From Escherichia coli (lineage in GTDB: Bacteria; Pseudomonadota; Gammaproteobacteria; Enterobacterales; Enterobacteriaceae), in assembly GCF_003019035.1 (NCBI RefSeq), contig NZ_CP027447.1: DNA of 64,000 nt. The stretch is one strand, 5' to 3'. Under the pieces are notes generated by a model that worked only from the letters and a program-made list of their open reading frames with translations, was not told the DNA's origin and did no database searches. The translations under genes were made by a program, and so were the position numbers. Below, piece by piece: positions 1 through 26,204 of this stretch (positions are counted from its first letter, which is position 1; every line of letters begins with the position of its first letter).

Positions 1-188
1 ATGGTAGTTATGCTCGGGTTTTGACTGCTCCATGTCGTTCACTGCTACTTGATCAGCAAAGCACTCCTGACAGTAAGTACCGTTTTATTCTTAAATAGAA
101 AATAACAGCTGAATTACCATGGGAGCAGAAAAAAGACAAAGGCGATATCATGCTGCGTTCTAAAATTTTAATGTAAAAGGTGATGAAC

Positions 189-290
189 ATGGCAGGGATT
201 CAGGTTATCGCAGGAAGTTTTCCTAAAGGGTGGGCAAGCATGGGGTTCGGTACCATCGTGTTTGCCACCAATCCATGGAACGATGGGTAA
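189..290 (+). other. small ORF (33 aa, MAGIQVIAGSFPKGWASMGFGTIVFATNPWNDG) with SD AAGGTG 6 nt upstream
   Basis: My own translation; good Shine-Dalgarno spacing; followed by palindrome and terminator. No recognisable family. Confidence 0.2.
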
Positions 291-410
291 TGTCTGCATT
301 TTCATAATCTGTAAGCCTTTTACAATTATTAAAAATATGGCAGGCTAGTCTGGTCTCGCGAGACTGACTGAACCTCGGTCGGCTCACAGTGCATTCCTGT
401 GGGACGATGG

Positions 411-448
411 CCAGCCCGGCTTTCGGGTGCCGGGCTGGTCGTTCTTTC
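411..448 (+). terminator. rho-independent terminator (10-bp stem CCAGCCCGGC / GCCGGGCTGG, then T-rich TCGTTCTTTC)
   Basis: Perfect inverted repeat with 8-nt loop followed by a T-rich run on the + strand. Confidence 0.55.
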
Positions 449-494
449 ATGATGCGGCAGGGATAGTGGGATTTCTGTTAATGTGGTTTAGGGA

Positions 495-710
495 TTATCC
501 GGGGTGATTGTCTGCCTTTATCTGGTCCAGGGCATAAGTGATCCCTTCAGCAAAAACAGAAGTATCGAACTGCTTTTGTATTTCCTGAAAATGAACAGTG
601 GCACGACAGATACTCAGTTCTCCGCGATGTAACCGGATAATATCTTCCAGAACATTGTTCACTGCTTCGGCACGGCGCTGATGTTCTGTTAACGTTAATC
701 GGGGATTCAT
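495..710 (-). CDS. hypothetical protein, 71 aa
   Basis: ATG preceded by strong SD (AAGGAG, 7 nt spacing) on the - strand; downstream of the NTPase gene in the same orientation. No family recognised. Confidence 0.4.
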   Translation of the reverse strand: MNPRLTLTEHQRRAEAVNNVLEDIIRLHRGELSICRATVHFQEIQKQFDTSVFAEGITYALDQIKADNHPG

Positions 711-1113
711 GATGCACTCCTTAAATGATGATTTTTATGTACTCACCGGCAAAATATTCTGCCGATTACTGAACACGCATCCGGCACCTCAGGTTTTGAT
801 TTATTCTGGTTTTTTCGATATCCCGGACCAGGTTGATCACGACCAGAAAAAGTGCCGGTATTTTATTGATACGCTGATATGGCTTCGGGATAACAGCTAT
901 ATTCGTTACTCTCAGTTGCTGGCTGTGGGAGCGGCTGATGTCGTCCTCACGGAAAAAACGCTCTGTCTGCTCAATGCCATGCCGACCTTTCTGCAGCCCC
1001 GGCCCGTACCATTTAAAGAGTTGCTTCTGGATGCAGTAAAAACCGGCGAAAATGCAGTCATCGCTGAATGCGTATCCCGGATTATGCGTTACGTGTTTAA
1101 TGAACGTAAGTGA
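709..1113 (+). CDS. hypothetical protein, 134 aa (start overlaps the divergent 71-aa ORF start; 3' end overlaps the NTPase gene 3' end)
   Basis: ORF-track ORF; weak SD-like GGGGA before ATG. Could be spurious antisense ORF. Confidence 0.25.
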   Translation: MMHSLNDDFYVLTGKIFCRLLNTHPAPQVLIYSGFFDIPDQVDHDQKKCRYFIDTLIWLRDNSYIRYSQLLAVGAADVVLTEKTLCLLNAMPTFLQPRPVPFKELLLDAVKTGENAVIAECVSRIMRYVFNERK

Positions 1114-1832
1114 GGTTTATCTGCTGTCTGCATAATCCCGATAGCCAGTGCGAGGGGAAGTAATTCCGGGGAAACTCTTTCAAACAGCGATGCCCATTCT
1201 CCTCTCGCCATCACTCTGTCCAGCCCGCCCCCCAGCTGCATTTCAGCAATCTTCCTGATTTCCCGGAACAACGCCGCTTTGATCTCTTCATGCTCAGCTT
1301 TATTTTCCGGTGTCAGAATGTATTCGTCGAAGAACCGGGGAGGCTGGTTAACGGGGATTGTGTTTACCGGGATGTGTTCCTGTTTCCCGTACTTCGGGGA
1401 CGAACAACATTCTGTTGGCTGACCGGTGAGTTTACGTAACTCCTTCATGAGCAGCTCCTGATCGTAAACTGTCATCAGTGCCGCAATGGTGGCATGCAGT
1501 GCATCGGGCAGTATCCAGGGTTGCCGGCCCGTGGGGCATATAACATCCAGTAGCTCATTCGTCCGACAGATACGCTCCTCTCCGTATGACAACAGGCCCT
1601 GTCCCGTGTATTCCTCCAGCCTGATCACTGTGCCAGCCCGTGGCTTCTGCCAGGTCGTCAGATCATCGCCACTCATACGGCGCTCATTCTCCACGTCAGC
1701 AGCATCGACAATGACGCTGTTTCCGAGTTCCTGTTTCACCACTTCCTCTATCCGCGCCAGTACGTAACTTTTACCGCTGCCCACAGGACCGGACACGGTG
1801 ACAGTGATGACCGGATTCAGTGTATGTGTCAT
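1089..1832 (-). CDS. P-loop NTPase, 247 aa, Walker A GPVGSGKS at residues 15-22 (nucleotide/polynucleotide-kinase-like N-terminus), unassigned family
   Basis: Walker A motif read directly; transcribed antisense to the phage late operon; C-terminal 130 aa without recognisable motifs. Confidence 0.6.
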   Translation of the reverse strand: MTHTLNPVITVTVSGPVGSGKSYVLARIEEVVKQELGNSVIVDAADVENERRMSGDDLTTWQKPRAGTVIRLEEYTGQGLLSYGEERICRTNELLDVICPTGRQPWILPDALHATIAALMTVYDQELLMKELRKLTGQPTECCSSPKYGKQEHIPVNTIPVNQPPRFFDEYILTPENKAEHEEIKAALFREIRKIAEMQLGGGLDRVMARGEWASLFERVSPELLPLALAIGIMQTADKPHLRSLNT

Positions 1833-1962
1833 GTTGCATTCTCCTCTGTGAATAATTCATCGTTTATCCTGCACATCCCGTATCCCCGGCTCTCTTAACG
1901 CGCTTTAAAATCCTTCGCGCCCTGTATTTGTGATGCTGTCTCCACCAGACAAGGAGACACAC
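1833..1962. promoter_or_regulatory. divergent intergenic region; 7-bp inverted repeat TGTCTCC(1937-1943)/GGAGACA(1953-1959) whose 3' arm contains the SD of the first late gene
   Basis: Inverted repeat seen directly; position corresponds to the lys late promoter of Mu-like phages. Confidence 0.3.
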
Positions 1963-7675: not shown

Positions 7676-8477
7676 ACTGGCGTACTGCATGACGCTTCCC
7701 CCGAAGCGGGCAGTCAGTTACCTGAAGTCCAAAGGGTATCAGATTACCTGGGACTGGGAAGAAATGTGGCAGGAAGCCCATGCCCGCGCCTTTACCGTCG
7801 CTAAAGTGACCCGCCTGGATATTCTGGAAGATATTCGCGGGGCACTGCAGCAGGCTGTCGATGAAGGAAAAACCGATCGCTGGTTCCGGCAGGAGCTGGA
7901 GCCGGTGCTGAAGCGTAAGGGATGGTGGGGACCACGTGACACGACTGACCCGGTAACGGGTGAGCCGGTCACCATTCAGCAGGGCAGCCCGTGGCGGCTC
8001 GACACCATCTTTCGCACCAATATGTCCGTACTCTACAGCGCCGGTCGTTGGGCGGAGCAGATGGAAAACGTCGACGACAGGCCGTACTGGATGTATACCG
8101 GCATCAACGACAGCCATACCCGCAGGAGCCATCTGGCGCTGCATGGTCTGGTGCTGCGCTGGGATGACCCGTTCTGGCAGGCATTTTACCCGCCGAACGG
8201 CTGGCGCTGCCGCTGTAGTGTGATTGCCCTGAGTGCGGCGGATGTACGTGCCCGGGGCCTGAAGGTTATCAGCTCCGGCTCTGCCATGGGCCAGGAACTG
8301 AAACTGGTCTCAGAGAAAACCGGCGAAATGCGGAACGTGGCCACCTTTAATACCGGCACCACGAAGGTGACCACCGACGTCGGCTGGTCTTATGCACCGG
8401 GGGCAGCATACCGTCCCGACCTGGCCCGCTATCAGGGTACGCTTCAGCCACTGGCACAACAGGAACTGAGAGGATAA
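7656..8477 (+). CDS. head morphogenesis protein (Mu F-like); ORF-track start 7629 is TTG, ATG 7656 preferred
   Basis: Mu F-like sequence and position after portal. Confidence 0.65.
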   Translation: MSVTTAELAYCMTLPPKRAVSYLKSKGYQITWDWEEMWQEAHARAFTVAKVTRLDILEDIRGALQQAVDEGKTDRWFRQELEPVLKRKGWWGPRDTTDPVTGEPVTIQQGSPWRLDTIFRTNMSVLYSAGRWAEQMENVDDRPYWMYTGINDSHTRRSHLALHGLVLRWDDPFWQAFYPPNGWRCRCSVIALSAADVRARGLKVISSGSAMGQELKLVSEKTGEMRNVATFNTGTTKVTTDVGWSYAPGAAYRPDLARYQGTLQPLAQQELRG

Positions 8478-8479
8478 CA

Positions 8480-8938
8480 ATGGCTTCCGATAACCTGGTC
8501 AGTATCACCATTAACGATAAATCCCTGCGCCGGAGCCTCCGTGCGCTGGATCTTGCTGCCACAGACCTGGAGCCCGCGATGCGCAAAATCGCCGGAACCC
8601 TGCTGGCGGAAACACAGTTTAACTTTCTTGATGAGGGGCGTCCGGGGTGGATGCCCTCGCTGGCAGCGGAAGAACGTGACGGGCAGACACTGCAGGATAC
8701 CGGGCGTCTGATGGGGTCAGTATCAACCGACCATGACGCCCGGCAGGCTGTTGTGGGGACCAACGTTGTTTACGGTGCCATTCACCAGTTCGGGGGTAAA
8801 ACGGGGCGTAATGAGTCTGTTGAACTTCCGGCCCGCCCGTTCCTGCCGGTGACGGGGGATGGAGAACTACAGCCTGAAGTGGTAATCCCCATCCTCGATA
8901 CCATTGTCCGCCATCTTGAATCAGCGGCCCGTCGCTGA
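8480..8938 (+). CDS. virion morphogenesis protein (Mu G-like), 152 aa
   Basis: Family resemblance; SD GAGAGGA. Confidence 0.6.
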   Translation: MASDNLVSITINDKSLRRSLRALDLAATDLEPAMRKIAGTLLAETQFNFLDEGRPGWMPSLAAEERDGQTLQDTGRLMGSVSTDHDARQAVVGTNVVYGAIHQFGGKTGRNESVELPARPFLPVTGDGELQPEVVIPILDTIVRHLESAARR

Positions 8939-9152
8939 GTTTTCTCTCTTCAGGCGGGTGATTTATCATTGCCAGCGAATGAGGGGCTGTATTACCTTTA
9001 TAAAGGCTTTACAGCCTCTGTTTTATAACCGCTTCCGGTTCACCGCATTGCTTTCCCTGTCCTTCTCCCCTGATGTTTTCTAAAGCAGATTAAAATCGCC
9101 GGGCCTGCATTTCTCACAAACTGTCTCCGACAACATAACGCGGGACAGCAAA
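8939..9152 (+). promoter_or_regulatory. 214-bp intergenic region inside the head operon with an imperfect palindrome centred on TTTATAAA; candidate late promoter (position of Mu PI)
   Basis: Long gap in an otherwise tightly packed operon; palindrome seen at ~8985-9020. Confidence 0.3.
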
Positions 9153-10268
9153 ATGTCAGCCATTCACATTTTTAAAGCCGGTACTCATACCGATATGCAC
9201 GGCAAAAAACTGCCGTTCACGCCAGACGATCTTGCCGCCTGCGTGAAAGCCTATGACCCGTCCGTCCATGAAGCACCACTCGTGATTGGTCATCCCAGAA
9301 CGGAAGACCCGGCGTGGGGCTGGGTGAAAGCCCTGTCGCTCAGCGGCGTCGATCTGATGGCAGAGCCTGCCCAGCTGGACCCGCAGTTTGCTGAGATGGT
9401 CACCGACGGACGATTCAAAAAAGTGTCCGCCTCTTTCTACCTCCCGGATTCACCGTCCAATCCGAAGCCCGGCGTGCTCTACCTGCGCCATGTGGGCTTT
9501 CTCGGGGCACAGCCACCTTCCGTCAAGGGGCTGAAACAGGTGTCCTTCAGTGAGCAGGAAGAAGGTGTGGTGGAGTTCGCCGACTGGCAGGCCATCACGA
9601 ATGCCTCCCTGTGGGGAAAGCTGCGCGATTTTCTGATCGCCCGCTTCAGTCTGGACGAGGCAGAAAAAGTCCTGCCGGAATGGCAGCTCAACAGTCTGCG
9701 CGAAGAGGCGTACCGCGACACACTGTCGCAGGATGCAGCAGGTGCCCAATTCAGTGAGACAGGCCCGGGGCCGTCTTCCGCAAGTAACGAGGAATCATCG
9801 ATGACAAAAGAAGAGATTGAAGCCCTTCAGGAGGAGAACCGCCGCCTGAAGCAGCAGGCTGCTGATCGCGATGCGCGTGATGCACAGGTCAGACAGGAGC
9901 AACTGCATAAGGACAATGTGGCCTTTGCAGAAAAACTGGTCGCAGAGGGCCGTCTGGCTCCCCGCGCCTCCTCCGTGGTGGTTGCCCTGCTGGATGCCGT
10001 CGCCGGTGGCGACAAGCCGGTGGAGTTTGCTGAGGGGGAAAGCCGCACACCGCTGGCCACCGCCTTTCGTTCATTGCTCTCCGACGGGGAGCCGGTGATG
10101 AATTTCGCCGAACAGGCCACAAAAGAGCGTGTCGGCGACACGGTGAAGGTGGATGTGGCGGAGTTTGCGGAAGCCGATCCTGAGCGTCTGGCCCTGCATC
10201 AGAAAGCAGTGGCCCTGTCCAAAAAAGAAGGCATCAGCTATGAGGCTGCTGTCGCACGCTGCCTGTAA
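9153..10268 (+). CDS. head maturation protease (Mu I-like) with C-terminal scaffold region
   Basis: Mu I-like N-terminal region; coiled-coil C-terminal half. Confidence 0.7.
   Translation: MSAIHIFKAGTHTDMHGKKLPFTPDDLAACVKAYDPSVHEAPLVIGHPRTEDPAWGWVKALSLSGVDLMAEPAQLDPQFAEMVTDGRFKKVSASFYLPDSPSNPKPGVLYLRHVGFLGAQPPSVKGLKQVSFSEQEEGVVEFADWQAITNASLWGKLRDFLIARFSLDEAEKVLPEWQLNSLREEAYRDTLSQDAAGAQFSETGPGPSSASNEESSMTKEEIEALQEENRRLKQQAADRDARDAQVRQEQLHKDNVAFAEKLVAEGRLAPRASSVVVALLDAVAGGDKPVEFAEGESRTPLATAFRSLLSDGEPVMNFAEQATKERVGDTVKVDVAEFAEADPERLALHQKAVALSKKEGISYEAAVARCL
9801..10268 (+). CDS. nested in-frame scaffold protein (Mu Z-like), internal ATG with SD GAGGAA
   Basis: In-frame ATG at 9801 preceded by GAGGAA at 7 nt; Mu makes Z from an internal start in I. 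Confidence 0.4.
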   Translation: MTKEEIEALQEENRRLKQQAADRDARDAQVRQEQLHKDNVAFAEKLVAEGRLAPRASSVVVALLDAVAGGDKPVEFAEGESRTPLATAFRSLLSDGEPVMNFAEQATKERVGDTVKVDVAEFAEADPERLALHQKAVALSKKEGISYEAAVARCL

Positions 10269-11245: not shown

Positions 11246-11584
11246 ATGGGAACCACTCAGCAGGTCATTCTGATTACAACCGTAACGGCAGGGGCAGAAC
11301 TGGCACAGCAGCGTTTTGTCGGGGCAGATAATACCCCCTGTAAAGCCGGTGCCGCAGCGCTCGGGGTTGCCGATGTGGATGCTGTTACCGGCGACAGCAC
11401 GCCGGTGAGCGTTCTGGGCATTATTGCTGTTGAGGCCGGTGCTGCGGTCAGCCGTGGTGTGGCTGTTCAGTCAGATGCTCAGGCCAGAGCCGTGCCGCAG
11501 TCCGGCGACGGTAAATCCTGTGGTATTGCACTTGATGAAGCCGGGGGTGAAGGCGACGTCATTCGTATCCTGCGCGGGGTGTGA
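11246..11584 (+). CDS. small Gly/Ala/Val-rich head-associated protein, 112 aa
   Basis: SD AGGAGG; position after major head gene. Confidence 0.4.
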   Translation: MGTTQQVILITTVTAGAELAQQRFVGADNTPCKAGAAALGVADVDAVTGDSTPVSVLGIIAVEAGAAVSRGVAVQSDAQARAVPQSGDGKSCGIALDEAGGEGDVIRILRGV

Positions 11585-14687: not shown

Positions 14688-14969
14688 GTGAGTGTTGAAC
14701 TGACTGACAAAGGAGGGCGATGTGCGTCACTGGGCATGTCAAATGGTACGTGGTTTACCCTCCTTGATATTCCGGGGGTGGAGACCCTCTTTAATACCCG
14801 TAAAACCAATGACCCGATTGACTGCACACGTTCAAAGGCCCGCAAACTGGCCGATTTGATTGAAGCATGGGAGCCGCCCGACCAGTGGTTCTCCGGCACC
14901 GGCAACTCTGAGGGAAAGGCGCTTCTCATCGCTTTCCTGCGTAACTGCAAGGGTTTTCGCACTTGCTGA
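14688..14969 (+). CDS. hypothetical protein, 93 aa, GTG start, followed by a terminator
   Basis: ORF immediately after tube stop; strong terminator directly downstream. Confidence 0.35.
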   Translation: MSVELTDKGGRCASLGMSNGTWFTLLDIPGVETLFNTRKTNDPIDCTRSKARKLADLIEAWEPPDQWFSGTGNSEGKALLIAFLRNCKGFRTC

Positions 14970-14976
14970 CATCACA

Positions 14977-14998
14977 GGGGCTCCGGCCCCTTCTTTTT
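14977..14998 (+). terminator. rho-independent terminator GGGGC-TCCG-GCCCC followed by TTCTTTTT
   Basis: GC stem plus T-tract read directly. Confidence 0.6.
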
Positions 14999-15066
14999 AA
15001 TCCCCTTTAATATCCGTCACGTCCACCGCCAGACATACTGCTCTGAATTTACAAAGGAGTATGATC

Positions 15067-15577: not shown

Positions 15578-18043
15578 GTGGCCAGTGAATTTTCAGTCGG
15601 CGTCATTATTGGCGGCATTGTCGGGAGCAGCTTCCGCTCAGCCGTCAGTGGCACCCGACGCGCCCTTGATTCCCTTGGTGATACCTCCCGCCGTCTGCAG
15701 GAACGCCAGAATGCCTTAACCCGGGCAACAGAACGTTATGGTCAACTGGGTTCTTCCCGGATGCAGCATCTCAACAGCGAGTTGCTGCGGGTAAGCCGCA
15801 CCATGGAGCAAATTGAACGTCAGCAGCGCCGTCTGTCAGCAGTATCAGCCACCGGTGATGCGTTGAAGGCTAACCGCCTGGCGCTCTATGGTCAGGGTGC
15901 AGAAACCTATGCTATTGGCAGAACGCTGGGCGCACCGGTCATGGCCTCGGTTAAACAATATGCCTCGTTTGAATCACAGTTGCGGGATATCAGTGTCACA
16001 GGAGACCTGGATGCAAAACAGGAACGTGCAATTGGCCAGGCTATCAGACAGGCCTCGCTGAAGGTTAACCAACTGCAGGAGTCTCTGTTAGGGGGAGTCG
16101 GACAATTAGTTGCTGATGGTATGGCCCCCGAACGGGCAGCAACGTTTGCAGAGATGCTTGGAAAGACCGCTACAGCAACCAAAGCCGATATGACCGACCT
16201 TGCCAAAATGACTTATGCCTTCAGCGATGCACTCAGAATCACTGATGCGAAAGAACTTGAACAGGCGTTTGGTATTGCGGCAACAGGAGCCAAACTTGGG
16301 TCATTTGAGCTGAAGGATATGGCAAAAGCATTACCCGGTATGGCTAAAGCCTTCGCTGCTCGTGGTATTTATGGAAAAGATGCGATTACCCAGATTGTTG
16401 CCAGTCTGGAGGTCGGTAAAGGTAGTGGCTCTGCAGAGGAAGCGGTCACCAATATGTCCAACTGGCTGGCAGCAATGGGCCGCGGAGATACCATCCAGAA
16501 ATATGCTAAAGCCGGGGTGGATTACCAGGGGTCAATGCAGAATTACGTCGCTCAGGGTTTTTCGCAGTACGAAGCTTCACTGATGATTGCCAACCGTTTT
16601 ATCGACAGTAAAGGCAAAGCGTTCTTGCAGCAATGGAAAGCTGCAGGAGCAAGAGGCGATCAGGAAGGTCAGCAGAAACTCATGGAGTCATTTGGTCTGG
16701 CTGAGGTCTTTACCGATATTCAGACTGTCAACCATTTACTGTCAATGCGACAGGGCTGGGATAAATACCTTTCCAGTAAGCAGGAAATGAATGCTCCGGC
16801 TGCAATGTCTACCCTGGATAAGGATGCTGCAAAGCAGAATGATACGCTTGAAGGTCGCTGGCGCAGAATGCAGATCGGCTTTAATGATTCTGCTATCAGC
16901 ATCGGGCAATCCTTGCGTCCGGCTTTGCTCCAGTTGGGTGAAACATTTATTCCTTTAATGGACAGCGTCGGCAAATGGATAGCGGCAAATCCGCAGCTCG
17001 TCAGCAGCACCATAAAGGTTGTGGGCGCATTACTCGCTTTCAGGATGGCCACTATCGGTCTCAAGTTTGGGCTGAATCTCCTTATTTCCCCCTTTGTAAG
17101 CGTCTGGAAAAATGCTGTTTTACTTCGGGCCAACTGGCTTCGTCTGATGCTCGCACTGGGGGAAGGCGGTAAACTCCGCTGGCTGGTGACAGGCTTTGGT
17201 GCCGTCGCCAGAGGAGCCAGAACACTGGGGGGTGTGCTCTCAGGGGGGCTGGTTCGCGGAATTATGAGCGCCGGGCGTGCCGTTCTCTGGATTGGCCGGG
17301 CGCTGATGATGAATCCCATCGGTCTCGCTATCACCGCCGTCGCGGCAGCAGCTTACCTTATCTACCGCAACTGGGGCGCGGTCAGTAGCTGGTTTAAACA
17401 GCGCTGGGCTGACATTCAGGAAGCCTTTAACGGCGGTATCGCGGGAATTGGTAAACTGCTGGTTAACTGGTCTCCGGCAGGTCTGCTTTATAAAGCCTTT
17501 GCGGCTGCGCTGAAATATCTCGGCGTTGATTTGCCGGCGAAATTCACCGACTTCGGTGGTCATCTTATTGACGGGCTGATAAATGGCATCAGAAACAAAT
17601 GGGAGTCACTGAAAACCAGCATAACCGGAATGGGTGACAGCATCAGTGACTGGTTCAGCGAAAAGCTGGGCATCCATTCACCGAGTCGCGTGTTTATAGG
17701 CTTTGGTGACAATATCGCGCAGGGTGCCGCCATTGGCCTGCAACGGACCACTCCGCTTGCTGCACTGGCCGGGCAGCGCCTGGCCGCTGAAATGACACCG
17801 GATGTTCCCCGTATCCCGTCGCCGGAAATCATGGCTGCCGGATATTCAGGCCGTGGCGCAACGGCAACCGGCGGTGGAGCGTCTGGCGGTATCCAGGTCA
17901 GCTTTAATCCTCAGTTTTTCCTCAATGGTAAGGAAACCGCAGCGCCTGCCGGGCTGACTGGTGCCCTGAATATGAGCCTGCATGAGCTGGAAAAAATGCT
18001 GGAGCGTCTGCTGGCTCAGAAACAACGTAAGGAGTACAGCTGA
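15578..18043 (+). CDS. tail tape measure protein, 821 aa (GTG start)
   Basis: Length, Ala/Gly-rich repetitive sequence, position. Confidence 0.8.
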   Translation: MASEFSVGVIIGGIVGSSFRSAVSGTRRALDSLGDTSRRLQERQNALTRATERYGQLGSSRMQHLNSELLRVSRTMEQIERQQRRLSAVSATGDALKANRLALYGQGAETYAIGRTLGAPVMASVKQYASFESQLRDISVTGDLDAKQERAIGQAIRQASLKVNQLQESLLGGVGQLVADGMAPERAATFAEMLGKTATATKADMTDLAKMTYAFSDALRITDAKELEQAFGIAATGAKLGSFELKDMAKALPGMAKAFAARGIYGKDAITQIVASLEVGKGSGSAEEAVTNMSNWLAAMGRGDTIQKYAKAGVDYQGSMQNYVAQGFSQYEASLMIANRFIDSKGKAFLQQWKAAGARGDQEGQQKLMESFGLAEVFTDIQTVNHLLSMRQGWDKYLSSKQEMNAPAAMSTLDKDAAKQNDTLEGRWRRMQIGFNDSAISIGQSLRPALLQLGETFIPLMDSVGKWIAANPQLVSSTIKVVGALLAFRMATIGLKFGLNLLISPFVSVWKNAVLLRANWLRLMLALGEGGKLRWLVTGFGAVARGARTLGGVLSGGLVRGIMSAGRAVLWIGRALMMNPIGLAITAVAAAAYLIYRNWGAVSSWFKQRWADIQEAFNGGIAGIGKLLVNWSPAGLLYKAFAAALKYLGVDLPAKFTDFGGHLIDGLINGIRNKWESLKTSITGMGDSISDWFSEKLGIHSPSRVFIGFGDNIAQGAAIGLQRTTPLAALAGQRLAAEMTPDVPRIPSPEIMAAGYSGRGATATGGGASGGIQVSFNPQFFLNGKETAAPAGLTGALNMSLHELEKMLERLLAQKQRKEYS

Positions 18044-18927
18044 TGTTTGCCGTACTGGGTGATATTGAGTTTGAACTGATTACCTACTGGGACGGCTTCG
18101 AGGCCACGTTTGGCGTCGATTATGCGGAGCATGCCCGCATCGAGGGTAAACCCGGCCTGCAGTTCGTCGGCGACAGGCTGGACGAAATCCAGATAAGCCT
18201 GGTCTTCCATCAGCATTATTGTGTGCCCGACGTGGAGCTGGCGAGAGTGCGAACAGCCATGAAGGCCCATCAGGCACTGGCGCTGGTCTTCGGCAACGGT
18301 GACTATCGCGGCTGGTTCGTGATTACCGATGTGACCGCAACCAGCGAGCAGACAGACAGCACCGGTAACGTGCTGGCTGTCAGTGCCACCGTGTCTCTCC
18401 GGGAATACACCGGTGACCCGAAAAATCCTCTGCAACCGCCGGCAATACGCAGGCAGGTTCCCGGTGCCGGGGCCGTATCTGGTGCTGTTCCATCGCCTTC
18501 CGGGGTGGCGCAGTTCGTCCGTAACGGCGTCAACTATGCGAAACAGGCGCAGTCTGTACTCCAGACCACCATCAGTGCCGTTCGGGTGGCACAGAAAATG
18601 AAGGGTAACCCTGTTGTCGCGCTGACCCGTGTACCGGGACTGATGAGCGGACTGGGTAATATATCCGTGGCTCTGGGGAAAAGTGTTCCGGCGTTTAATG
18701 CACTCTCTGAATCCATGCCCGATGCCATCAGTCTGGCCAGAACAGCCAGTGAGGCAGCCACGTATGTACAGCAGGCGCAGTCGGCGCTGAGTGGTGTGGA
18801 CAAAAGAAATATTGCAGGTGCTCTGGATACCGTTTCCGGGCAGCTTAACGCCGCCGGCACAGCATTCAACCGCATGTCTCCGGGATTAAGTGCAATGGCC
18901 GCCAGAATACTGACGAGGAGTGTGTGA
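18043..18927 (+). CDS. tail protein (Mu N / DNA-circulation-like)
   Basis: Order after tape measure; family resemblance from memory. Confidence 0.5.
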   Translation: MFAVLGDIEFELITYWDGFEATFGVDYAEHARIEGKPGLQFVGDRLDEIQISLVFHQHYCVPDVELARVRTAMKAHQALALVFGNGDYRGWFVITDVTATSEQTDSTGNVLAVSATVSLREYTGDPKNPLQPPAIRRQVPGAGAVSGAVPSPSGVAQFVRNGVNYAKQAQSVLQTTISAVRVAQKMKGNPVVALTRVPGLMSGLGNISVALGKSVPAFNALSESMPDAISLARTASEAATYVQQAQSALSGVDKRNIAGALDTVSGQLNAAGTAFNRMSPGLSAMAARILTRSV

Positions 18928-20805: not shown

Positions 20806-20861
20806 ACCTTCTTAAACGCCTTTAATATCGGCGCTTACTTCCCGGGGGCAATACTGCCTCC

Positions 20862-21209
20862 ATGAAAACGACCTCAGTATTCTGGCAACCAGCTCTGCAG
20901 GCTCCCGGCGAAATCGTCCGGGGGCTGGATGATATCCGGCAGTCCATCCAGATCATCCTGCGGACTCCCCGCGGCAGCGACCCGCATCGCCCGGAGTTCG
21001 GCAGCAATCTGCACCTTTATATCGACTGGCCTGTCGACCGGGCCATTCCGCATGTGGTTCGCGAATCCGTCGATGCCATCAGGCGCTGGGAACCCCGCTG
21101 CCAGCTTATGTCGGTTAAACCCGCCGTCGACGGCGAACATCTTACGCTCCGGGTGAGCTGGAAAGGCTCAGACGGACAACCCCGTACTCAGGAACTGCTA
21201 TGGCGCTGA
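20862..21209 (+). CDS. baseplate wedge protein gpW/gp25-like, 115 aa
   Basis: GPW_gp25-like sequence. Confidence 0.7.
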   Translation: MKTTSVFWQPALQAPGEIVRGLDDIRQSIQIILRTPRGSDPHRPEFGSNLHLYIDWPVDRAIPHVVRESVDAIRRWEPRCQLMSVKPAVDGEHLTLRVSWKGSDGQPRTQELLWR

Positions 21210-23851: not shown

Positions 23852-24469
23852 TCAACTGGCTGCTGCCAGAGGCATTTCCGGCCAGTTGATATCCGGTGCA
23901 GTGCTGATGTCAGTCGCATTAAGCACATCTATGAAATCAAGCACGGCGTTTAGTTTTTCCGTCTCCTGGGGCGTCAATCGGCGTCCGGCTCGTAGTTTGA
24001 GATTTATAAGCTCAACAGATGCCATTGCCTGTTCCTCAAGTTGCTGACGATGCACTCCGGCAGCTTCCAGTTCTGCTGCGTGCTGTCGTCCCGCATCTGT
24101 CACCCAGGTCTCACCATCCCAGACATCATAGATAGTAGCTGGCTGTTTCACCGTCGTATCAGGAGGGTAATCTCCCGGTTGTGTGATTTGCACAGCGTTA
24201 CCATTCTCTGTGCTGTAAACCGTTTCGCCTCTGTGGTCTGGAACATATTTCCAGATGTTCTGGTCGGTATCACGACAGACAGCGAAGCCGGGGCGTTTTT
24301 CTGGTGGCGCGTCAATGCATGAGTGAGCCGGAATTCCAACACCATAAGCGAGATACTCAACAGTGGCAGAGAGATATTCACGGTTTTCAGCATCGTAGTT
24401 ATAAACGGTAATATCGCCTGCAGTTATAGCGATACCATTCTGATCAAGTACTGCAGCAGCATTATTCAT
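23852..24469 (-). CDS. tail fibre assembly protein (Tfa/U-like), 205 aa
   Basis: Tfa-like sequence; start overlaps stop of the inverted alternative fibre segment. Confidence 0.7.
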   Translation of the reverse strand: MNNAAAVLDQNGIAITAGDITVYNYDAENREYLSATVEYLAYGVGIPAHSCIDAPPEKRPGFAVCRDTDQNIWKYVPDHRGETVYSTENGNAVQITQPGDYPPDTTVKQPATIYDVWDGETWVTDAGRQHAAELEAAGVHRQQLEEQAMASVELINLKLRAGRRLTPQETEKLNAVLDFIDVLNATDISTAPDINWPEMPLAAAS

Positions 24470-24972
24470 TAAGTAGCCCTTACAATATAGTTAAACGCAA
24501 TATTACGGGGGCGGTTTTCCGTTCCTGTATTCCCTCCGTTGGCACCTAATCTATAAACACCACGAGTGCCAATAGCACGTAGTGAAGATGGAACTTTTAC
24601 ACCTGACTCATCTGTTTTAACAATCCCGCCATCACCGTATGTAGCCAGTATACCAGGGTTTGTTCCTGCACGGGTGCTATTTGCGGCAAGCCCTTCACCA
24701 GTCCATAACTCCATATAGTGAATATGATCTATAACCGAATGTGATTGTGCATTAAGCAAGGAACGCCCTGAATCAATTCCCCGCCCGTCATCCCAGCCGC
24801 GAATAAACTCACCCCGTAAATCCGGTAATTTATTCGCGGGGTAGGCTTTTGCCAGTTTGGGGTACATTTCAGAAGAAAATGCTGCACCGTTACATTTCAG
24901 CCACCCTGCTGGCGGTGTGGCTGAGGGCCACGGAACGGGCACACCAACGGGCAGTGCAGAGCCTTCCCCCAA
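24469..24972 (-). CDS. alternative tail fibre C-terminal segment (silent in this orientation; no own start expected)
   Basis: First 65 aa near-identical to internal part of the + strand fibre; different C-terminal ~100 aa ending in the same RPRNIAFNYIVRA motif. Confidence 0.65.
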   Translation of the reverse strand: MGEGSALPVGVPVPWPSATPPAGWLKCNGAAFSSEMYPKLAKAYPANKLPDLRGEFIRGWDDGRGIDSGRSLLNAQSHSVIDHIHYMELWTGEGLAANSTRAGTNPGILATYGDGGIVKTDESGVKVPSSLRAIGTRGVYRLGANGGNTGTENRPRNIAFNYIVRAT

Positions 24973-24978
24973 ACCAAC
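24772..24978 (-). repeat. inverted repeat, right copy
   Basis: Reverse complement matches 23371..23569. Confidence 0.8.
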
Positions 24979-24988
24979 GTTTTCGTCT
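24963..24988 (-). other. gix/hix-like recombination site, right (reads GACGAAAACGTTGGTTTGGGGGAA on the - strand)
   Basis: Same AAAC-NN-GGTTT core in inverted orientation. Confidence 0.5.
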
Positions 24989-25043
24989 TAACTCCCACCT
25001 ATACCAGCTATGTATTTTTAACAAAACAAAGAGGATATTTTTC

Positions 25044-25616
25044 ATGCAAATTGGCTACATTCGTGTGTCAACAAATGACCAGAATACAGATTTACAACGA
25101 AACGCACTGAACTGCGCAGGATGTGAACTGATTTTTGAGGATAAAATCAGCGGAACAAAGTCAGCCCGACCGGGATTGAAAAAGCTGCTCAGAACGTTAT
25201 CAGAAGGAGATACGCTCGTTGTCTGGAAGCTGGACAGGCTGGGCAGAAGCATGAAACACCTCATCACTCTTATTGAGGAACTGCGGGAAAAAGGGGTTAA
25301 CTTCCGTAGTCTTACAGACAGCATTGATACGTCAACACCCATGGGACGTTTCTTTTTTCACGTCATGGGGGCTTTAGCGGAAATGGAGCGTGAATTAATA
25401 GTTGAACGAACACTGGCCGGACTTGAAGCAGCACGTGCACAGGGGCGTATTGGTGGACGTCGTCCGAAACTGACAAAAGAGCAACATGAACAAATAGCAA
25501 GGCTGATCAAAAATGGCTATAGCAGGAAACAGTTGGCAATTATTTACGATATCGGTATATCGACGATTTATCGTTATCACCCTGTAGAGGAACTTCAAAC
25601 TCAAGCTGAGTTGTAA
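25044..25616 (+). CDS. Gin/Pin/Hin-family serine DNA invertase, 190 aa
   Basis: N-terminal MQIGYIRVSTNDQ catalytic-serine motif and near-identity of long blocks to Gin/Pin as I remember them; SD AAGAGGA. Confidence 0.85.
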   Translation: MQIGYIRVSTNDQNTDLQRNALNCAGCELIFEDKISGTKSARPGLKKLLRTLSEGDTLVVWKLDRLGRSMKHLITLIEELREKGVNFRSLTDSIDTSTPMGRFFFHVMGALAEMERELIVERTLAGLEAARAQGRIGGRRPKLTKEQHEQIARLIKNGYSRKQLAIIYDIGISTIYRYHPVEELQTQAEL

Positions 25617-25691
25617 TTCTTTTTCTGATATTGAAATGCCGCGGCGATGTAATTTATCTCACGGAAATAGGTACGTTTATCGCGCGGCGCA

Positions 25692-26204
25692 TCAATTCCT
25701 TTGTAAATCCAGCAAATCATCAATGCCAGTTTCACTTGCGGTATAAAAACTATCGGACTGAAAAACACACGGGCGACCTTGCTGATTAAAGGTCATCAGA
25801 ATCAAAAACGCGTTAGGTGCCAGACCATTTCCTGAAATACCCCGCCAGATAACCAGATCCTGAATGCCGTTACGATCAAGATCGGCACGGTAAAGTTGCG
25901 CATTACCCGCCATATTTTGCAGCACCCCCACAGGCACAGACCAGGATTTACCGGCGCGATCTTTACCGTTCAATTGCCATTCACTATCATCATTTGGCAT
26001 CTTTTCAAGCGTCACGCCAGCAACGCCGACTTTTCTAAAATGCCAGGTTTGCTCGGCATCATAAGGCATGGTCAGGAGAGGTTTCAGCGCCCGCTTTTGC
26101 GCGTATTCGCTGTCACTCATCGGCAGATATTCGGTAAAGCTGGTGGCCTGTGCAGGCAGCACTAAGCTCAATAAAAAAGCGCACATCCCTGTTCTGATGT
26201 TCAA
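25692..26204 (-). CDS. secreted hypothetical protein, 170 aa (signal peptide ...LSLVLPAQA), between invertase and hycI
   Basis: Signal-peptide-like N-terminus; TTG at 26204 or ATG at 26186 as start. No family recognised. Confidence 0.5.
   Translation of the reverse strand: MNIRTGMCAFLLSLVLPAQATSFTEYLPMSDSEYAQKRALKPLLTMPYDAEQTWHFRKVGVAGVTLEKMPNDDSEWQLNGKDRAGKSWSVPVGVLQNMAGNAQLYRADLDRNGIQDLVIWRGISGNGLAPNAFLILMTFNQQGRPCVFQSDSFYTASETGIDDLLDLQRN

Follow-up and report, generated by a model that had tools for sequence, protein, structure and literature searches.

A predicted late promoter and a separate conserved palindrome between the G-like and protease genes of a BcepMu-type prophage of Escherichia coli

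The gap between a Mu G-like gene and a protease gene equivalent to Mu I was analyzed in a 64-kb stretch of Escherichia coli DNA (contig NZ_CP027447.1), referred to here as the window. Positions 1-25694 of the window are the right-hand ~70% (25.7 kb) of a BcepMu-type transposable prophage. We consider it probable (about 0.6) that the gap, at 8939-9152, is the BcepMu-family counterpart of the G-I region of phage Mu, an operon boundary with two separable elements, a promoter and a palindrome. Mu reportedly has a C-dependent late promoter, PI, and a strong gyrase site (SGS). In the Mu sequence (AF083977), the gyrase cut site of the SGS is at 17879/80, a predicted terminator is at 17908-17953, and PI is at 17977-18043, between G and I. 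A sequence-only reading of the window had placed the gap where Mu has PI, and the Mu coordinates agree with this. The gap is the positional homologue of Mu 17860-18055, as judged from gap counts in relatives.

The boundaries of the gap were determined from the flanking genes. On the left, the Mu G-like virion morphogenesis/Neck1 gene (8480-8938, + strand; PF05069, E = 4.9e-23; phrog_26; 44% identity to BcepMu gp31) ends with TGA at 8936-8938. On the right, the gene for the protease/scaffold protein (9153-10268, + strand; head maturation protease; phrog_976, E = 2.3e-163; 49-50% identity to BcepMu gp32 and phiE255) begins with ATG at 9153 and is the first gene served by the promoter. An earlier protease start is impossible, because TAA at 9081-9083 closes the frame and no ATG, GTG, or TTG occurs within 9084-9152. 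The gap is exactly 214 bp and is the largest intergenic distance of the late region, where the other gaps measure 91, 175, and 56 bp and the genes for the most part overlap or touch. The description of a 214-bp non-coding gap in an otherwise tightly coupled operon was thus confirmed to the nucleotide.

The promoter occupies the right half of the gap. Its predicted activator-binding site is an imperfect dyad, TTTTCTAAAGCAGATTAAAAT, at 9076-9096 (+ strand), assigned to a late activator of the Mor/C family. This site was the best hit of the activator-site matrix in the prophage (29.2 bits) and is near-invariant in Enterobacterales. An alignment of 21 Enterobacterales gaps contained four conserved blocks separated by freely diverging spacers, and the third of these blocks is TTTTCTAAAGCAGATTAAAA(T/G) at 9076-9096, followed by 20 nt, a hexamer nAnnnT, and G. 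In the window, the -10 hexamer is CAAACT at 9117-9122 (+ strand), followed by G, and there is no -35 hexamer; a sigma-70 scan of 8000-10000 likewise gave no promoter on the + strand. The spacer between dyad and hexamer was 20 nt in 36 distinct relatives ranging from Pantoea to Burkholderia, Ralstonia, and Pseudomonas, with one of them fitting better at 21. By our reading, the second base of the hexamer was A and the sixth was T in 35 of the 36. These are the two most critical positions of a -10 element. Transcription is predicted to start 7-8 nt past the -10, at 9129-9130 (+ strand). The dyad centre at 9086.5 would then be at -42.5 or -43.5 relative to +1 at 9129 or 9130, overlapping the -35 region. 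The C sites of Mu are 16-bp imperfect dyads centred at -43.5, in promoters with a recognisable -10 and no -35 (PMC2582627). In beta-proteobacterial relatives, the protease ATG is located 6 nt past the hexamer, exactly at the predicted +1. This implies a leaderless mRNA and independently supports the -10 assignment.

The same module was found at other late operons of the prophage. A strict pattern, TAA..[CG]...TTAA.A[TG], 20 nt,.A..CTG, matched three times in the 25.7-kb prophage part (1896, 9081, and 14998), always on the + strand, in intergenic DNA, and before late operons. It matched nowhere in 200 shuffles of the 64-kb window. A looser pattern added one match at 20813, before the baseplate genes. 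The activator-site matrix, built mostly from diverged relatives, returned the same four sites as its top + strand hits (12.7-29 bits). It also scored all four on the opposite strand (29.2 and 7.2 bits for the two strands of 9076-9096), and the activator site is therefore an imperfect dyad. The three sister promoters consist of the dyad, a 20-21-nt spacer, and nAnnCTG. One precedes the holin/lysis operon at 1896-1938 (+ strand; TAACGCGCTTTAAAAT, 20 nt, GATGCTG; strict match, 16.0 bits). Another, with a clean terminator hairpin upstream, precedes the tail assembly and tape-measure genes at 14998-15040 (+ strand; strict match, 15.7 bits). The baseplate promoter is at 20813-20856 (+ strand; loose match, 12.7 bits), with an ATG at 20862 exactly at the predicted +1, and the mRNA of this baseplate gene is predicted to be leaderless. 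In BcepMu, an exact 16-mer, TAAAGCCGATTAAAAG, is present upstream of both the holin and the protease genes (sites at 11486 and 18813). The complete prophage copies L009 and L099 encode a Mor-family protein (E = 5e-15 to Mu C; phrog_532) with 37% identity to Mu C over the DNA-binding region and 54% identity to BcepMu gp1. A Mu-like multi-promoter late scheme, which the sequence-only reading had proposed, is very likely for this prophage, as the module stands before three other late operons. We identify 9076-9130 as the PI equivalent with fairly high confidence; that the activator binds, where transcription starts, and when the genes are expressed are inferred from the sequence.

The second element is an imperfect palindrome at 8982-9019. 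Its arms (8982-9000 and 9001-9019) adjoin with zero spacer and form 15 of 19 possible Watson-Crick pairs, and its centre at 9000/9001 falls inside TTTATAAA. This degree of pairing was reached by 1 of 5000 shuffles of the gap, and only three such centres exist in the window, so that the imperfect palindrome claimed earlier was borne out. As RNA, the palindrome folds with -20.7 kcal/mol (z = -4.2), and none of 200 shuffles was as stable. A T-rich run, GTTTTATAA, follows at 9020-9028 (+ strand). An inner hairpin (9004-9017) together with this run was flagged, and a stable stem-loop followed by an interrupted U run, GUUUUAUAA, forms a terminator-like signal in this lineage. The palindrome contains the core CTTTATAAAG (8996-9005), followed by TTTACAG (9008-9014), and CTTTATAAAG was invariant in all 21 Enterobacterales sequences. 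Of 49 distinct gaps, 37 contained a single copy of the octamer TTTATAAA, where chance would give 0.2. B3 has this octamer too, and within the 36.7-kb BcepMu genome it is unique. In the prophage part of the window, TTTATAAA has one other occurrence, at 17487-17502 inside the tape-measure gene, where TTTATAAAGCCTTTGC has 14 of 16 positions in common with the palindrome core TTTATAAAGGCTTTAC. A sigma-70 promoter with TATAAA as its -10 was considered in either direction and was rejected, since no -35 is conserved.

The palindrome and the promoter are separate elements. The earlier reading had implied that the palindrome is itself the binding site of a C/Mor-type late activator. The palindrome does contain TAAAG units like those of the dyad, and it ranks 23rd of 51,346 matrix positions. 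However, it scored 0.7 bits with the activator-site matrix, compared with 12.7-29 bits for the four promoter sites. The activator site is 85 bp downstream of the palindrome. Among relatives, palindrome and dyad are 64-105 bp apart, and the distance from the palindrome to the -10 is variable. It is absent from the other three late promoters, and inserted DNA can separate it from the promoter by up to 1.4 kb. These results largely refute the palindrome as activator site, and we regard such a role as very improbable.

The homologous gaps in relatives were then compared. A scan with one genome per species gave 80 loci. Both G and I could be placed in 61 of these. The median gap was 215 bp, and 46 of the 61 were within 170-290 bp. 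Sizes were 202 bp in BcepMu, 214 bp in phiE255, 250 bp in Pasteurella AFS-2018a, 234 bp in Pseudomonas Komp_PAO1_1, 284 bp in YPCBV-1, 214 bp in Bhz63, 267 bp in RcapMu, 190 bp in B3, and 196 bp in Mu. Ten of the 61 related prophages (L031, L038, L040, L047, L050, L054, L057, L065, L067, and L090) had enlarged gaps, defined as >300 bp, with 0.39-2.3 kb of extra DNA. TTTATAAA was retained in seven of the ten, and in five of these seven (L038, L050, L054, L057, and L065) it was located 71-74 bp past G. In these five, the insertion lies between TTTATAAA and the promoter dyad and separates them by 0.4-1.4 kb. The promoter dyad, where recognisable in these five, was 57-75 bp upstream of the protease gene. 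In L054 and L050, an inserted open reading frame begins ~35-55 nt past TTTATAAA. From the arrangement of these loci, the G-I gap appears to be a hot spot for morons, like the anti-CRISPR locus of D3112-like phages.

A further conserved block lies to the left of the palindrome. This island, GCGGGTGATTTATCATTG, at 8954-8971, was invariant in the Pantoea, Mixta, Trabulsiella, Limnobaculum, Photorhabdus, and Xenorhabdus relatives despite divergent flanks. Its distance from the G stop is constant, and in the window it starts 16 bp past the stop. The island differs between clades, with GCGGGTGATTTATCATTG in the window group and in Photorhabdus/Xenorhabdus, GGTTCATC in Pseudomonas, and AACG(A/G)TAG in beta-proteobacteria. 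From centre to centre, island and palindrome were 38-39 bp apart in the majority of lineages. The distance was 29-30 bp in two Enterobacteriaceae lineages and in Photorhabdus/Xenorhabdus, and 48 bp in a Pseudomonas subgroup. Since these spacings step by about one helical turn, they argue for one nucleoprotein complex spanning at least 50 bp.

We propose the following explanation for the two elements. A phage protein of the Mor/C family would bind the imperfect dyad at 9076-9096, overlapping the missing -35, and would recruit host sigma-70 RNA polymerase to the weak -10 CAAACT. Transcription would start near 9129-9130 and run into the protease/scaffold and capsid genes. The same module would drive the lysis, tail, and baseplate operons, giving a four-promoter late scheme like the Plys, PI, PP, and Pmom of Mu. 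The palindrome, distinct from the promoter, would be part of the G operon's end. Its hairpin and U run probably terminate or attenuate the upstream late transcript in this E. coli lineage. As the invariant AT core is phase-locked 39 bp from the conserved island, it most likely also acts at the DNA level as an architectural site near the prophage centre, and a gyrase site analogous to the Mu SGS would be the leading candidate for such a site.

Several observations weigh against this proposal. The -10 CAAACT is weak, matching TATAAT at three of six positions. The window does not include the activator gene, which was observed in other prophage copies only. The promoter pattern was partly derived from the sites that it found, and the independent evidence comes from the 36 relatives and from the sites in BcepMu and before the baseplate genes. 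On the side of the palindrome, hairpin stability is not conserved, with z from -4.4 to +2.7 across relatives. No stable stem is present in the Photorhabdus, Xenorhabdus, Ralstonia, and many Pseudomonas relatives, and a U run is often lacking; the T run of the window is not kept in KP12-type relatives. Termination thus cannot account for the conservation of TTTATAAA, and the palindrome was rejected as a conserved RNA hairpin. Because the sequence is conserved while the hairpin is not, its conserved function would be at the DNA level.

Alternative explanations of the palindrome and the island were weighed against each other. The two together could be a central strong gyrase site like that of Mu, with gyrase cleaving in or near GGGT/GATT (8956-8963) and wrapping the right-hand arm, which is AT-rich and bendable. 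End synapsis for replicative transposition would then be aided by processive supercoiling that proceeds from the centre of the prophage. We regard this as possible, although tentative. The place is that of the Mu SGS, just past G, with the Mu cut 20 bp after the G stop and the window island at 16 bp, and the left-to-right order of cut site, hairpin, and PI is the same as in Mu. The place is also near-central, at 0.51 of the genome length in BcepMu and B3, 0.487 in Mu, and ~0.53 in this prophage, the last value coming from an E. coli composite of the L099 left arm and the window right arm. The reverse complement of the island contains AAATCACCCGC, which was compared with AAATCAGCCGC at the Mu gyrase cleavage site. 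It reads TA|AATC|ACCCGC against TAA|AATC|AGCCGC in Mu, and it exactly matches the 133-bp Mu SGS fragment used in Topo-Seq, from which a gyrase consensus is available (Sutormin et al. 2019). TTTATAAA is 39 bp from the putative cleavage centre, TTTTTAAA is at +39 in Mu, and an AT peak lies near +37.5 in the Topo-Seq consensus. The spacings of 29-30, 38-39, and 48 bp in helical-turn steps also favour this reading, as does a clade-specific island beside a universal bendable core, with the core-like island confined to Enterobacterales and Pasteurellaceae. However, the core matched wild-type Mu at 10 of 11 positions (11 of 11 for the Topo-Seq fragment), which is not significant, as 324 of 2000 shuffles (16%) did equally well. 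A better chance match to the Mu core was found at 25137-25156, in the invertase motif EDKISGTK. The core is also inverted relative to Mu, the Mu SGS itself lacks TTTATAAA, and wrapping signals read indirectly do not usually keep an octamer strictly conserved across hosts as far apart as E. coli and Burkholderia. AT patches occur near the consensus AT peaks, and the S/W agreement was 0.60 compared with 0.59 for the Mu SGS, by a crude score that fails to single out the SGS within Mu. Substitute gyrase scorers (133-bp consensus by S/W or exact match, and 10-11-bp AT periodicity) were discarded, as the known SGS was not their top site in Mu. A wider version, in which a clade island and a universal TTTATAAA core 29/39/48 bp apart past G would serve transposable phages other than the Mu genus in general as their central gyrase site, with a cleavage core tuned to the host gyrase and a wrap signal common to BcepMu-like and B3-like phages, is speculative, and we hold it to be rather doubtful.

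A perfect palindrome of 10-12 bp, (C/G)CTTTATAAAG(G/C), might instead be the operator of a sequence-specific dimeric DNA-binding protein, from the phage or the host nucleoid. The island would then be a second phased site of the same complex, with a regulatory or architectural role unrelated to gyrase. An exactly conserved short perfect palindrome, unique in the BcepMu genome and at a phased spacing from a second conserved block, is typical of a dimer operator, and the Pseudomonas D3112-like phage Ab30 has a different long palindrome just past its G homologue, beside small inserted genes. On the other hand, no candidate protein is known, the divergent early control/operator region has no similar sequence, the palindrome did not fit the IHF and Fis consensus sequences when compared by eye, and no gene in the window is obviously regulated from it. 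An operator is an uncertain option to which we give limited weight. It is unlikely that the palindrome does no more than end the lysis-to-G late transcript as an intrinsic terminator. This reading agrees with the strong hairpin and GUUUUAUAA in the window, with the terminator predicted by TransTermHP at the equivalent place in Mu, with the terminator-then-promoter order seen again at the tail junction (14969-15061), and with the element remaining next to G when genes are inserted. It does not agree with an AT core that is kept while stem stability and the U run vary, and a terminator needs neither an invariant TTTATAAA nor a phase-locked upstream island. The island might also be an internal binding site of the phage transposase, an enhancer-like third site that brings the ends together. 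Its reverse complement contains GATAAATCAC, which was compared with the terminal repeats of the prophage, and the ~35.7-kb prophage has just three copies of GATAAATnAC, one in the repeat at each end and one in the island (~0.27 expected by chance). However, this pattern was chosen after the fact, agreement with the consensus of the terminal repeats covers only 10 of 13 positions, and the Pseudomonas and beta-proteobacterial islands have no demonstrated likeness to their own ends. We consider the proposal improbable. A small protein or small RNA encoded in the gap is hardly credible. Open reading frames of 59 and 41 codons exist, one of them annotated in KP12 (KP12_270), and a TATCAT hexamer is upstream of the hairpin. 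Nevertheless, relatives break these frames through -1/+1, 9-bp, and 10-bp indels, by which the gap was rejected as coding DNA. In addition, neither a -35 nor the hairpin is conserved, and an Rfam 15 search of the gap gave only chance-level matches (best 16.9 bits, compared with a gathering score of 60).

An inverted repeat was also found at the downstream end of the promoter. In the minimum-free-energy fold, CTGTCTCCG (9121-9129) and CGGGACAG (9141-9148) form a dyad at 9121-9148 (+ strand). CGGGACAG contains a Shine-Dalgarno-like GGGA (9142-9145) and pairs with the 3' end of the -10 region. Enterobacterales and Pseudomonas have different arms that nevertheless remain complementary, with 7.7/9 pairs for a clade's own arms compared with 5.5/9 across clades. 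This was measured by an anchored pairing count, as the MAFFT alignment put the arms out of register; RNAalifold, run on that alignment with its misaligned arms, found nothing at this dyad. The lysis promoter has an analogous inverted repeat at 1932-1965, in which TGTCTCC at the -10 end pairs with GGAGACA at the Shine-Dalgarno. The predicted start is at the end of the 5' arm, and therefore only read-through transcripts would form the hairpin. We speculate that the hairpin might silence translation of read-through RNA and leave promoter-initiated mRNA free. The second-best hit of the activator-site matrix in the prophage (19.3 bits) was TCCCTAAACCACATTAACAGAA at 473-494 on the - strand. CATCAT is located 20 nt downstream of it and overlaps the ATG of a minus-strand open reading frame at 223-450, an arrangement that may represent a leftward late promoter for an accessory gene.

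Other features of the prophage were noted. Its junction with the host is at 25694/25695, where the host hyc operon adjoins. The prophage has 99.7% identity to Escherichia phage PhiKM (Bcepmuvirus) and ~87% to Klebsiella phage KP12, and the prophage segment tested was carried by 636 of 5426 complete E. coli genomes (~12%). The accessory region 5' of the lysis promoter varies among prophage copies (window 1-1895 compared with L099 10935-12829). The window has open reading frames at 709-1113 (+) and 1089-1832 (-, with a weak AAA-domain match) in this region, and other copies have a DUF2441 gene there. Read inward, the right end of the prophage at 25694 (window 25560-25694) opens with TGATGCGCCGCGCGATAAACG...GTGAGATAAATTAC, and the left end of another copy (L099 1217-1290) has TGATTAGACTTGAGATAAATGAC...GTGAGATATTTATG. 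Both ends are terminal transposase-type repeats, G(A/C)GATA(A/T)(A/T)(T/C). A serine recombinase (invertase) gene at 24849-25616 lies beside oppositely oriented tail-fibre and assembly genes (23852-24972, - strand), which suggests that 23852-25616 is an invertible host-range region like the G segment of Mu.

The promoter result provides a testable map of late transcription, made up of four promoters, a single motif for the activator site, and a spacing fixed at 20 bp, that would also serve for relatives. The residual interest is in the conserved, phased central element, which is short, unique, deeply conserved, and helically phased, at the position and genome centre of the Mu SGS. If this element is a gyrase site, gyrase cleavage there would also explain the accumulation of morons and anti-CRISPR genes. 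If it is not, it is still an unexplained conserved DNA signal in phages of hosts from E. coli to Burkholderia.

Comparable arrangements are found in known phages. The moron and anti-CRISPR site of the D3112-like Pseudomonas phages, as in Ab30, resembles the present gap in having a palindrome and in taking up extra genes just past the G homologue. It differs in the sequence of the palindrome (GGCACATTGTGCCTA / TAGGCACAATGTGCC) and in its inserted genes, as the window has none. An insertion-free segment of Ab30 has been proposed as an SGS (PMC5977238). In our locus for this phage (L100, 437-500), that segment adjoins the palindrome GGCACATTGTGCCTA / TAGGCACAATGTGCC, with 15-bp arms, upstream of two small open reading frames. 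The Ab30 palindrome looks more like the operator of the inserted gene cassette than a gyrase site. The G-I gap of BcepMu (18648-18849; 202 bp) is a direct homologue that shares the TTTATAAAGGCTTTAC core and the promoter element, and the proteins encoded beside it are 44-54% identical. BcepMu differs in the left part of the gap, where the island is AACGATAG compared with GCGGGTGATTTATC here, in the predicted leaderless protease mRNA, and in the GC-rich genome of its host. A search of the open literature found nothing on BcepMu late promoters or on a central site in BcepMu, although the BcepMu and B3 genome papers may already describe the motifs.

The central element is like the Mu SGS in its position directly past G and near the centre of a ~36-kb transposable prophage. 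In both, the short core has on its I-proximal side an AT-rich arm that can form a hairpin, with an AT element 39 bp from the cleavage centre (putative here), and the compared cores read AAATCA(C/G)CCGC. It differs from the Mu SGS in that the core is inverted and its similarity alone is not significant. The arm has one invariant octamer here and several TTTAAA-type repeats in Mu, and the position is 0.53 compared with 0.49. The promoter is like Mu PI in its location between G and the protease gene I (the right third of the gap in Mu), in its weak -10 without a -35, in the imperfect dyad near -43 for an activator of the Mor/C family, and in being one of about four late promoters. The comparison with Mu promoter elements that the sequence-only reading had called for held in part. 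The -10 CAAACTG is common to both G-I gaps (the upstream region of Mu lys has TAGACTG), and no further similarity appeared in this comparison, which was made without a published C-site consensus. The promoter differs from PI in its activator-site sequence, TAAAGCnGATTAAAAG, which belongs to the BcepMu-type family, in having a single Mor/C homologue where Mu has a Mor-then-C cascade, and in the leaderless mRNA predicted in beta-proteobacterial relatives and at the baseplate promoter here. On this evidence, the predicted promoter joins the Mu kind of late promoter with an activator-site sequence of its own.

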